Shown here one piece after another: positions 1,389 to 4,084 of a DNA stretch of 4,084 nucleotides. The notes below the pieces were generated by a model. It made no database searches. It had not been told where the DNA came from and saw only the letters and a list, made by a program, of their open reading frames with translations. The position numbers and the translations under genes were made by a program. Source of the DNA: a virus (lineage: Duplodnaviria; Heunggongvirae; Uroviricota; Caudoviricetes); the IMG/VR virus record IMGVR_UViG_3300029745_000166; one strand, given 5' to 3'. Numbering within the stretch: position 1 is the first letter of the stretch; the number at the start of each line of letters is the position of its first letter.

Positions 1389-1574
1389 TTACTTAATTAT
1401 GTAATTCATACCCGAACTCTCTGTTGACAGCCTTCTTCTGCAGGCTTCAATAACCCACGCTGAAAAGTTTCCTGAACCTTTCAGATCAAGAGCGATGTTA
1501 ATTTGTTCAATCATCTGGTTTGGAAATCGGATGTTGCGGGTTGTTGTTCTGCGGGTTCTGTTCTTTGATGACAT
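1389..1574 (-). CDS. Small ribbon-helix-helix-like protein, 61 aa; resembles the DUF3950 / YlcI-type small proteins of lambdoid prophages (from memory, unverified)
   Basis: ORF-track translation MSSKNRTRRTTTRNIRFPNQMIEQINIALDLKGSGNFSAWVIEACRRRL... has a basic N-terminus, a short beta-strand-like RNIRFP, then two helices (NQMIEQINIAL, FSAWVIEACRRRL), the pattern of RHH DNA-binding proteins. The ATG at 1574-1572 has TGGGGAA 7-8 nt upstream on the minus strand. Confidence 0.6.
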   Translation of the reverse strand: MSSKNRTRRTTTRNIRFPNQMIEQINIALDLKGSGNFSAWVIEACRRRLSTESSGMNYIIK

Positions 1575-1780
1575 AATGTTTCCCCATATTCAGTGTTGCT
1601 GATTTGTATTATCTGAAGTTGCTTTTACGTTAATTTGACGCAGATCAATTAATACGATACCTGCGTCATAATTGATTATTTCTCGTGGTTTGATGGCGTA
1701 CACACATGTTGTGATAAACCTTATATAGATGATAATAATTATCATTTCGTGGGTCCTTTCCGGCGATCCGACCGGTTACG

Positions 1781-1792
1781 GGGCGGCGACCT
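1781..1792 (+). other. cosN: cosN 12-nt cohesive end GGGCGGCGACCT
   Basis: Exact match to the lambda 12-nt single-stranded cohesive end, flanked on both sides by lambda-like end sequence. Confidence 0.85.
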
Positions 1793-1821
1793 CGCGGATT
1801 TTCACTATTTATGAAAATTTT

Positions 1822-1933
1822 CCGGGATCCATGTCCGGTTTCTCTGCAAGTTAACCATATGAAAAATATAAAAACATGCTTTCCATGAACCGGACATGCG
1901 CAAAAAATAGACACTAAAACCGGACATGACCGG
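1822..1933. repeat. cosB: Three copies of a CCGGACATG core: one inverted at 1829-1838 (CCATGTCCGG) and two direct at 1890-1898 and 1920-1928 (the last within CCGGACATGACCGG); candidate small-terminase binding elements of cosB, analogous to lambda R3/R2/R1
   Basis: Repeats seen in sequence. They sit between cosN and the small-terminase start, with an A/T-rich spacer (1851-1884) between the first and second copy where lambda has its IHF site I1. Functional assignment is inferred. Confidence 0.55.
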
Positions 1934-1975
1934 TTTTGTTGTGATTGTGAGGTGAGAGTTTTTGCGAGGTGAGGA

Positions 1976-2485
1976 GTGGCTACGCAGACTGAAGTTGCCA
2001 GGCATTTAAGTCTGACCGATCGCCAGCTTCGCAGATTGCAGAAATTGCCGGGTGCCCCGATATCGAATAAGCGAGGGCAACTGGATCTGGATGCCTGGCG
2101 CGATTTTTACATATCGTATCTGAGAAGAAGTAAAAACGATGTGCCTGATGGCGATAGCGAAGACGACTATGAGGAGAAATTGCTTATTGCCAGATGGGAA
2201 CTGACAGCAGAACAGGCTGTTACACAGCAGTTAAAAAATGAGGTGTCAAAAGGAAAACTTATTGACACCGGGTTCTGTATTTTTGCCCTCAGCAAGCTGG
2301 CAATGGCGTTATCCAGTACGCTTGATTCCATCCCTTTATCCATGCAGCGACAGTTTCCTGATTTAACACCGCGCCATCTTGACCATCTGAAAACCCTTAT
2401 TGCGAAGGGGGCAAATCAGTGTGCGCGGGCGGGGGATAAATTACCGGATTTACTCGATGAATATATCAGAGCAACAACTGAATAA
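1976..2485 (+). CDS. nu1: Terminase small subunit (Nu1-like): lambda-like C-terminal two-thirds, non-lambda N-terminal DNA-binding domain
   Basis: GTG start at 1976 with GAGGT/GAGGAG upstream. The C-terminal part aligns with lambda gpNu1 (FC.F.LS..A...S.LD..PLS.QR.FP.L..RH.D.LK..I.K, LL.EYI); the N-terminal ~50 aa (MATQTEVARHLSLTDRQLRRLQKLPG...) does not resemble the lambda Nu1 N-terminus but looks helix-turn-helix-like. TAA at 2483-2485. Confidence 0.88.
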   Translation: MATQTEVARHLSLTDRQLRRLQKLPGAPISNKRGQLDLDAWRDFYISYLRRSKNDVPDGDSEDDYEEKLLIARWELTAEQAVTQQLKNEVSKGKLIDTGFCIFALSKLAMALSSTLDSIPLSMQRQFPDLTPRHLDHLKTLIAKGANQCARAGDKLPDLLDEYIRATTE

Positions 2486-2486
2486 T

Positions 2487-4084
2487 ATGATGAGTGCTGT
2501 CACAACAGCATTACAGCCCCTGATAAGGGCATTGCCGGTGACGCCAGTTGAATGGGCTGATCAAAATTATTATCTGCCTAAAGAATCTTCATATGGTGAG
2601 GGAGAATGGAAAACGCTGCCGTTCCAGATCGCCATCATGAACAGCATGGGGAATGATCAGATCCGGACTGTTAATCTGATTAAATCTGCCCGTGTTGGCT
2701 ATACAAAGATGTTGCTGGGGGTGGTCGGGTATTTTATTGAGCATAAATCCCGAAACAGTCTGCTTTTTCAGCCCACGGATTCTGCCGCTGAAGATTTTAT
2801 GAAGTCTCATGTGGAGGCGACGATTCGGGATGTGCCATGTCTGAAAGACCTTTCTCCATGGCTGGGGCGTAAACATCGTGATAATACTCTCACGCTGAAA
2901 CGCTTTTCATCGGGGGTGGGCTTCTGGTGCCTGGGCGGCGCTGCCGCCAAAAACTACCGTGAAAAATCCGTGGACGTGGTCTGCTATGACGAACTTTCCT
3001 CGTTCGAGCCGGATGTTGAAAAAGAGGGCTCGCCAACCCTGCTGGGGGATAAGCGTATTGAGGGCTCGGTATGGCCAAAATCCATTCGCGGCTCGACGCC
3101 TAAAATCAAAGGCTCATGCCAGATCGAAAAAGCGGCCAACGAGTCGGCGCATTTTATGCGTTTTTATGTGCCCTGCCCGCACTGTGGGGAGGAGCAGTAT
3201 CTGAAATTTGGCGATGAGTCCACGCCTTTTGGGCTTAAATGGGAGAAGGACAGCCCCGAAAGCGTTTTCTACCTCTGTGAGCATCATGGCTGCGTGATCC
3301 ATCAGTCTGAACTGGACCAGAGTAACGGGCGGTGGATCTGTGAAAACACGGGCATGTGGACCCGTGACGGTCTGACGTTTTTCAGCGCTGCGGGTAATGA
3401 AATTCCGCCGCCGCGCTCCATCACGTTCCATATCTGGACGGCGTACAGTCCGTTCACCACCTGGGTACAGATTGTCTATGACTGGCTGGATGCACTGAAA
3501 GATCCCAACGGCCTGAAAACCTTTGTGAACACCACGCTGGGAGAGACCTGGGAAGAGGCCGTGGGCGAAAAACTCGATCACCAGGTACTGATGGATAAGG
3601 TCGTGCATTACACGGCGGCGGTGCCAGCCCGGGTGGTTTATCTGACGGCGGGCATTGACTCGCAGCGAAACCGTTTTGAGATGTATGTCTGGGGATGGGC
3701 ACCGGGAGAGGAAGCTTTTCTGGTGGATAAAATCATCATTATGGGCCGTCCCGATGAGGAAGAGACGCTGTTACGTGTGGATGCGGCGATCAACAAAAAA
3801 TACTGCCATGCAGACGGAACCGAAATGACCATTTCCCGTGTCTGCTGGGACACCGGGGGGATCGATGGTGAAATTGTCTATCAGAGGTCAAAAAAACACG
3901 GTGTTTTCCGGGTGCTGCCGGTAAAAGGCGCATCTGTCTATGGCAAGCCGGTGATCACCATGCCGAAAACCCGCAATCAGCGGGGCGTGTATCTGTGTGA
4001 AGTGGGGACGGACACCGCAAAAGAAATTCTCTATGCCCGTATGAAAGCCGATCCCACTCCTGCGGATGAAGCCACGTCGTATGC
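2487..4084 (+). CDS. A: Terminase large subunit (gpA-like), 5' partial: first ~532 codons, continues beyond the window
   Basis: Hand translation from ATG 2487 (or 2490) runs without a stop to the window end and aligns almost continuously with lambda gpA (VEWAD.NYYLPKES.Y.EG.W.TLPFQ, KSARVGY.KMLLGV, KKHRDNTLT.KRF, FWCLGG.AAKNYREKSVDV, EGSP.LGDKRIEGSVWPKSIRGSTPK, CPHCGEEQYLKFGD, WTAYSPFTTWVQIV, KTFVNTTLGETWE, YLTAGIDSQ, WGW.PGEE, CWDTGGID, RSKKHG.FRV.P.KGASVYGKPV, GTDTAKE). Missing from the ORF track because there is no in-window stop. The start is one nt after the Nu1 stop (TAAtATG). Confidence 0.95.
   Translation, partial: MMSAVTTALQPLIRALPVTPVEWADQNYYLPKESSYGEGEWKTLPFQIAIMNSMGNDQIRTVNLIKSARVGYTKMLLGVVGYFIEHKSRNSLLFQPTDSAAEDFMKSHVEATIRDVPCLKDLSPWLGRKHRDNTLTLKRFSSGVGFWCLGGAAAKNYREKSVDVVCYDELSSFEPDVEKEGSPTLLGDKRIEGSVWPKSIRGSTPKIKGSCQIEKAANESAHFMRFYVPCPHCGEEQYLKFGDESTPFGLKWEKDSPESVFYLCEHHGCVIHQSELDQSNGRWICENTGMWTRDGLTFFSAAGNEIPPPRSITFHIWTAYSPFTTWVQIVYDWLDALKDPNGLKTFVNTTLGETWEEAVGEKLDHQVLMDKVVHYTAAVPARVVYLTAGIDSQRNRFEMYVWGWAPGEEAFLVDKIIIMGRPDEEETLLRVDAAINKKYCHADGTEMTISRVCWDTGGIDGEIVYQRSKKHGVFRVLPVKGASVYGKPVITMPKTRNQRGVYLCEVGTDTAKEILYARMKADPTPADEATSY

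Follow-up and report, generated by a model that had tools for sequence, protein, structure and literature searches.

The window, by which we mean the whole stretch of 4,084 nucleotides analyzed here (IMG/VR record IMGVR_UViG_3300029745_000166), spans the junction between lysis and head genes in a lambdoid phage genome whose genes stand in prophage order. Its left part contains Rz (298-765) and the embedded Rz1 (518-703), followed by an AT-rich island (960-1300) in which the GC content is 0.34-0.39, versus ~0.55 in the Rz-side flank (600-900). A hydrophobic ORF of 46-52 residues within this island (1098/1116-1256), annotated in O104:H4 only as hypothetical, looks like a small cargo ("moron") gene placed between the lysis genes and cos. 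Further to the right, a DUF3950/YlcI-YnfO ORF with a PF13132 match is encoded on the minus strand (1389-1574) inside lambda-like right-end DNA; no gene is annotated in NC_001416 for its lambda counterpart, which is 88% identical. One instance of GGTTGTTGTT, the R motif of N15/Monarch, is found within this ORF at 1539-1548, ~240 bp left of cosN; it is present in lambda too and is probably a chance occurrence. Right of the cos region, the gene for the small terminase (169 residues) extends on the plus strand from a GTG at 1976 to 2485, and the large terminase gene, also on the plus strand, starts at 2457, overlaps the small terminase gene and is cut by the window end. A direct repeat, TTGTGAGGTGAG (1945-1956) and TTGCGAGGTGAG (1962-1973), lies just 5' of the small terminase GTG, and its second copy supplies the ribosome-binding site of that gene. 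The best matches in complete genomes are E. coli prophages, at no more than 97.6% identity across the whole window (e.g. O104:H4), and at least 80% of the window is covered in 360 genomes of the complete-genome search. Among isolated phages, PhiR12_1 to PhiR12_5 come closest, and the literature search returned no source paper for them. Assignment of the window to a phage-inducible island (PICI) was considered and rejected, since Rz/Rz1 upstream and, in matching genomes, a full terminase and head operon downstream identify it as part of a phage.

The segment between the DUF3950 ORF and the small terminase gene presents the components of a lambda-like cos, which in lambda itself are arranged in the order cosQ-cosN-I2-R3-I1-R2-R1 and served by the gpNu1/gpA terminase. 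The packaging termination signal, cosQ (GGGTCCT), is found on the plus strand at 1751-1757; it is identical in lambda, occupies the phage 21 position (-30 to -24) and is unchanged in all eight diverged relatives of the alignment described below. It precedes the 12-nt cohesive end GGGCGGCGACCT within cosN (1781-1792, plus strand), which matches both lambda and 21 at 12 of 12 positions. By homology with these phages, the nicks would fall between 1780/1781 on the top strand and 1792/1793 on the bottom strand. A conserved block leading from cosN to cosB (1793-1825, plus strand; left-end positions 13-45) and holding TTATGAAAATTTTC is identical to lambda at 31 of 33 positions and to 21 at 30 of 33, with 1809-1822 near-invariant among the diverged relatives. 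The features that mark a lambda-like cos are therefore present here, namely the 12-base end, a cosQ ~30 bp left of the nick and a Nu1/GpA terminase pair, in which the gene for the GpA-family large terminase overlaps that of the Nu1-family small terminase immediately right of cos. A preliminary description of this DNA had proposed that the phage genome termini lie inside the window, which homology bears out, and that the cohesive end and the end sequences around it are identical to those of lambda. Identity is complete for the cohesive end and is limited to its 12 nt: the lambda-like right-end DNA (1440-1780, plus strand) is part of a blastn match to lambda that covers 1440-1825 at 87.8% identity, with 87.6% over 1641-1825. 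The lambda-likeness of the right-end and left-end flanks thus stands, but not the extent of ~140 bp that had been given for it, since the similar stretch runs over the whole of 1440-1825.

Beyond this stretch, lambda is matched by blastn only at 2542-3964, at 69.7% identity. Phage 21 presents matches at 1730-1821 and then at 2539-4084 (90.9%), and N15 a single match at 2539-4024. No blastn match to lambda, 21 or N15 was obtained for 1826-2538, and cosB is 50% identical to lambda, which is the level of unrelated sequence. The right border of the unmatched segment falls inside the large terminase gene. Its first ~27 codons (2457-2538, plus strand), encoding what by analogy with lambda gpA would be the small-subunit-binding segment, belong to the swapped DNA, and its body (2539-4084, plus strand) encodes a GpA-family protein that is phage-21-like. 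The same transition is visible at the protein level, where identity to the 21 large terminase is 40% over residues 1-40 and reaches 95-100% from approximately residue 80. When loci with the same C-terminal type of the small terminase are compared, the large terminase N-terminus has 70-85% identity. The large subunit aligns over its full length with lambda gpA and 21 gp2, its 542 visible codons are open, and PF05876 and PF20454 are recorded for homologous large subunits. Because 1826-2538 is unmatched, the exchanged module can be delimited as cosB together with the entire gene for the small terminase and the initial ~27 codons of that for the large one. The alignment against lambda, 21 and N15 that the preliminary description had recommended hence confirms a lambda-like cosQ and cosN, and assigns the body of the large terminase to a 21-like rather than a lambda-like type.

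The cosB region had been described as carrying three repeats, one inverted and two direct. Three exact copies are indeed present, at 1830-1840, 1888-1898 and 1918-1928; the repeated unit, however, is longer than first reported, being the 11-mer AACCGGACATG, and is accompanied by a degenerate fourth copy. The copy at the R3 position (1830-1840, plus strand; left-end positions 50-60) reads CATGTCCGGTT and contains the core TCCGGTT at 1834-1840. The copy at the R2 position (1888-1898; left-end positions 108-118) is inverted with respect to R3, lying on the minus strand and reading AACCGGACATG on the plus strand. In the R1 region (1917-1936, without assigned strand; left-end positions 138-155), an exact AACCGGACATG in minus orientation (1918-1928) is overlapped by a one-mismatch copy in plus orientation, CATGACCGGTT (1925-1935), and the third repeat site is therefore a palindrome. 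Of 20,000 dinucleotide shuffles, only 5 produced three occurrences of any 11-mer in 1781-1975, and the core TCCGGTT occurs four times in the window, against an expectation of 0.47, with three of the four instances in cosB. In phage 21, the annotated sites span left-end positions 50-65 (R3), 107-122 (R2, inverted) and 150-166 (R1). The repeats thus occupy the R3 and R2 positions of lambda and 21, and the third copy lies 12-22 bp left of R1. R3 and the inverted R2 fit the pattern of a complex cosB, which has three R elements and an R3 situated ~48-65 bp from the left end, and the orientation rule for R1 is fitted loosely, with copies in both orientations. The third repeat may equally well be a hairpin; many close variants in E. 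coli do not have it, and where it is present its orientation changes from lineage to lineage.

Between R3 and R2, a candidate IHF site I1 was identified on the minus strand at 1852-1864. Its sequence, TTTCATATGGTTA, has two mismatches to the consensus WATCAANNNNTTR, which makes it a weak part of the site, and a consensus scan allowing at most one mismatch returned no instance in cosB or elsewhere in the window. The candidate spans left-end positions 72-84, compared with 74-86 for I1 of phage 21, and the TAA within it forms an invariant island in the alignment of relatives. Two relatives (L038 and L039) present a perfect IHF consensus at the aligned place, and by our own reading of the lambda sequence, lambda I1 is as imperfect against the consensus as the candidate in the window.

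The small terminase consists of a predicted N-terminal DNA-binding domain of a type designated here "MATQ" (residues 1-55; 1976-2140, plus strand), with a predicted recognition helix at residues 15-22 that includes R16, R19 and R20, and of a linker and C-terminal Nu1-family domain (2141-2485, plus strand; PF07471 at residues 49-150), for which homology indicates roles in oligomerization and large-subunit binding. The N-terminus had been described as non-lambda and the C-terminus as lambda-like. The former holds, since the N-terminal 55 residues (MATQTEVARHLSLTDRQLRRLQKLPGAP...) yield no BLAST match to lambda Nu1 or to the corresponding proteins of 21 and N15, and represent a different sequence family. 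The latter is correct as regards membership of the Nu1 family but overstates the likeness to lambda, as residues 73-164 are only ~46% identical to lambda Nu1, and lambda-type proteins align only from residue 73. Full-length alignments were obtained with the small terminases of Pseudomonas phage LPPA33 (43%), Aeromonas phages phiARM81ld and PhAER-1, and E. coli phage vB_EcoM-705R4. Profile comparison of the N-terminal domain, or head, with the lambda/21 head places the helix-turn-helix in register in a weak match (probability 17%), and an AlphaFold model (pLDDT 75) contains a strand, helix 4-10, helix 15-22, a wing-like loop and helix 38-55, followed by long helices. A Foldseek search against the PDB produced no match at E ≤ 0.001, the top non-significant ones being MerR-type winged-helix proteins; the small terminase sequence gave only chance matches among PDB chains (E ~1), lambda Nu1 not being among them, and no NCBIfam model was found for it. 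The fold of the N-terminal domain is probably the same as that of the Nu1 head (lambda gpNu1 residues 1-68), a helix-turn-helix with a wing that leads into a long helix. An exhaustive search with the 56-residue head domain, a query too short to size the family, retrieved 42 cluster representatives. Two long proteins, P0105 (2465 aa) and P0122 (349 aa), were matched by the head domain over 20 and 6 stretches, respectively, and may be artefacts or repeat proteins.

Comparison of the window protein (1976-2485) with P0056, P0059, P0069, P0073, P0076, P0063 and P0087 revealed that one and the same C-terminal domain occurs fused to three head types, "MATQ", N15/Monarch and lambda/21. The presence of this domain on three unrelated-looking heads implies that head and tail are shuffled as separate modules. 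According to established lambda genetics, reportedly from the Feiss laboratory, the contact between the small and large subunits is formed by the Nu1 C-terminus and the gpA N-terminus. Given that contact in lambda, the module in the window would hold two matched pairs, one composed of the DNA site and the head domain and the other of the tail domain and the large-subunit N-terminus.

The association between repeats and head type was assessed across 218 related loci, comprising 91 distinct combinations. A first scan of viral contigs returned near-identical E. coli loci only, and more distant queries supplied diversity. Eight relatives with small terminases 60-80% identical, drawn from Klebsiella, Salmonella, Citrobacter, Enterobacter and E. 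coli, were aligned over the cos region (alignment A6). In this alignment the spacers have diverged, and the invariant positions are TCCGGTT (1834-1840), AACCGGA (1888-1894), cosQ, the nick flanks and the TTATGAAAATTT block. As regards the geometry of the site, the distance from cosQ to the core is 82-85 bp over the 91 combinations, in complex cos and N15-like simple cos alike, and the inverted R3 and R2 are exactly 54 bp apart in every complex cosB examined. In the simple cos of Aeromonas, Pseudomonas, Azospirillum and others, the terminase gene starts ~80 bp from the end.

Throughout the 218 loci, the TCCGGTT core always accompanies the "MATQ" N-terminal domain, barring those members of the head family that do not have Asp15-Arg16 (L031, L032, L035, L141, L142 and L145), upstream of which no TCCGGTT was found. 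In L031, the region upstream of position 1201 contains CGGGTTGCGGGTT repeats instead, which hints at further specificity variants inside the head family. Where the same C-terminal domain is joined to heads of N15/Monarch type (P0056 and others), the gene adjoins GGTTGTTGTT repeats, and where it is joined to a head of lambda/21 type (P0063), the adjoining repeats are of the AGATCC(G/T)TTCTT type; L045, a true Monarch-type locus, provides a contrast case. Co-variation extends to a single residue and base. For heads with Arg20, of which six are distinct, the base before the core is G at 436 sites, A at 2 and T at none, whereas for the 34 distinct heads with another residue at this position (Asp, Asn, Glu, Ser, Thr or Lys) it is T at 65 sites and G at none, although these counts do not represent independent events, because the sequences are related, and document approximately two independent Arg/G switches. 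In a separate simple-cos lineage with Arg20, GTCCGTGTCCGGTT is found in place of the TTCCGCTTCCGGTT of its relatives, and hence both half-sites have changed.

These results bear on the earlier proposal that cosB and the small-terminase N-terminus have been exchanged together, as they have between lambda and 21. The concerted change of repeat type and head type over the 218 loci, the placement of the repeats at the R3 and R2 positions of phage 21 and the invariance of the core where the spacers have drifted are all in agreement with it. The exchange does not stop at these two elements, however, as the module also holds the C-terminal domain and ~27 large-subunit codons. Position, conservation, geometry and co-variation are four lines that all identify the repeats as predicted docking sites for the terminase. 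The repeats could instead be operators of another regulator, or the third palindrome a terminator or RNA hairpin preceding the head genes, in which case their placement at the R positions would be coincidental. Such a reading could draw on the R1 palindrome (1915-1938), which scores as an intrinsic-terminator-like hairpin on both strands, and on promoter-like hexamers at 1709-1739. The promoter scan, however, is at chance level (3 found versus 2.6 expected), the Rfam search yielded nothing relevant, with all matches far below gathering scores, and it is the single AACCGGA core, and not the palindrome, that is kept in relatives. Since a fixed distance to cosQ and co-variation with the recognition helix would also be unexpected for an unrelated regulator, we consider this explanation very improbable.

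The predicted docking sites could also be diverged R elements of phage 21, recognized by the terminases of both phages and conferring the same packaging specificity. The large terminase body is 91% identical to that of 21, and in the annotated record the R elements of 21 share CATGTC..GG with the window repeat, the 21 core CATGTCGG resembling CATGTCCGG of the window. The latter, however, has one inserted C, a one-base insertion that shifts the register of the GG step, and 21-type heads elsewhere pair with different repeats. Shared specificity with 21 is unlikely because the part of the repeat conserved in the family is TCCGGTT and not CATG, and because the heads are unrelated in sequence, that of the window having no BLAST similarity to 21 gp1 and only a weak profile match.

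We favor, with considerable confidence, the interpretation that 1751-1936 is the cos of an E. coli lambda-like temperate phage or prophage, laid out in the complex manner of lambda and 21, whose R elements and reader domain lie outside the lambda, 21 and N15/Monarch classes. In the mechanism proposed for it, the N-terminal domain of the small terminase (residues ~1-55), a putative winged helix, would bind the CAT(G)TCCGGTT elements, and a dimer would engage the inverted R3/R2 pair, 54 bp apart and joined by an IHF bend. Residue 20 would read the base pair just 5' of the core, with Arg corresponding to G and Asp, Asn and others to T. The C-terminal domain would hold the large subunit via the first ~30-40 residues of the latter, which would thereby be positioned to introduce into cosN two nicks separated by 12 bp, at 1780/1781 and at 1792/1793. 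R1 may be an accessory element, as indicated by its absence from numerous close variants in E. coli and by its lineage-dependent orientation. It is from sequence comparison that we infer binding, bending and the nick positions, as well as the inability of lambda and 21 terminases to use the site; a distinct packaging specificity is, likewise, what the window site is predicted to have.

When 5,426 complete E. coli genomes were searched, the module was matched in 1,186, with a query coverage of 80% or more in 1,154 of these and a median of two places per matching genome. The matching genomes include O157:H7, O145 and O104:H4 strains, and in many EHEC genomes the module is present in two to four prophages. 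Lambdoid prophages of E. coli are defective in many cases, and the window might accordingly derive from a decayed prophage remnant in which cos is out of use and its anatomy historical. The fact that the best match among complete genomes reaches no more than 97.6% identity to the window points in this direction, as does the loss of R1, or of an exact R2, in some close variants. In the window itself, however, cosQ, cosN, R3, R2 and R1 all remain intact, the ORF of the small terminase has its full length and the 542 visible codons of the large terminase are open. Moreover, PhiR12_1 to PhiR12_5, which are isolated and viable phages, have this cosB and this small terminase with 97-99% identity. 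We judge a decayed remnant to be improbable.

A cos of the window class was also found in a satellite-like island. The island, in E. coli strain 135 (NZ_CP080260.1, ~3,777,000-3,785,900; L269 6927-7125), encodes an Icd-like protein, a RepA helicase, an SSB, PerC, and capsid (lambda-E-type) and decoration proteins, and its end is formed by a complete cos composed of cosQ, GGGCGTCGACCT, CATGTCCGGTT, AACCGGACATG, AACCGGACAT and AACCGGAAGTG. No small terminase ORF was found after this cos, and 44 genomes contain at least 80% of the island segment. In O145:H28, a sister island (L270 7440-8162) instead has its own N15/Monarch-type small terminase and a matching cosB. Retention of the site where the small terminase gene is missing is as expected if a helper terminase recognizes the site in trans, and suggests that such satellites may depend on a helper terminase of the window class. 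The broader proposition that emerges is that of a fourth and very common class, defined by a TCCGGTT-reading head with an Arg20-G and Asp/Asn20-T code, operating in complex and simple cosB and used in trans by satellites lacking a small terminase; taken as a whole, we regard its chances of being correct as evenly balanced.

Packaging specificity decides which DNA is encapsidated by a helper, and so which prophages, satellites and cos plasmids travel together. Since approximately one in five complete E. coli genomes contains the module, frequently more than once, the sharing of cosB and terminase might account for the mobilization of defective prophages and islands in pathogens, and the class, if real, could set which of these elements are co-packaged in EHEC. 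The co-variation of residue 20 with the base before the core amounts to a simple recognition rule, of possible use for re-targeting cos packaging in phage and cosmid engineering, and the window class as a whole constitutes a natural data set for cos recognition.

In the literature searched, the coverage of which leaves out key older papers, the packaging classes described are those of lambda, 21 and N15/Monarch, within a group of lambda-like cos phages defined by their 12-nt 5' cohesive ends (Feiss et al. 2015, PMC4669245). The window repeat motif was not found described there, and its sequence strings retrieved unrelated primer sequences only. With lambda, the window shares the identical 12-nt end and cosQ, an R3 at positions ~50-60, an inverted R2 that follows after ~55 bp and, in the interval, a candidate IHF site. 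It differs from lambda in its R sequence, which is CGTTTCC-type in lambda and CATGTCCGGTT in the window, and in the opposite orientation of its third repeat, when taken as the exact copy; neither the lambda R sequence nor a lambda-type recognition helix, which would place it in the lambda specificity class, was found in the window. Phage 21 has the same architecture, near-equal R coordinates and, as noted above, a closely similar large terminase body. Its gp1 N-terminal domain, however, belongs to the lambda sequence family, unlike that of the window, so that both the core and the sequence family of the head set the window apart from the 21 specificity class.

N15/Monarch provides the precedent for a class of this nature, being a third class with its own head and R motif and with both a simple (N15) and a complex (Monarch) cosB. 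The head family of the window is similarly found in simple cos, in Aeromonas phiARM81ld and in Pseudomonas and Azospirillum prophages, and in complex cos, in enterobacteria. In contrast, the GGTTGTTGTT motif of N15/Monarch and its recognition helix ISVQAFDKWG are absent from the cosB and head of the window. A Monarch-type identity had been entertained on account of the N15 left end, which resembles the R1 region (GGACATGA..GGTT..TTGTTGT), and was rejected, as the recognition helix differs. According to a published report (PMC4669245), lambda DNA can be packaged by the N15 terminase even though the R sites are unrelated, and differing R sites are therefore no guarantee of exclusive specificity. 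The window also differs from the cos of Gram-negative PICIs with Rpp (Fillol-Salom 2019, PMC6739421; Murialdo & Feiss 2022, PMC9026076), in which the reader is an island protein that hijacks the terminase of the helper, whereas the reader in the window is a full small terminase encoded in a phage late operon, with Rz upstream and the large terminase downstream. In comparison with these systems, the window leaves the known mechanism unchanged and probably adds one more specificity class to a well-understood kind of site.
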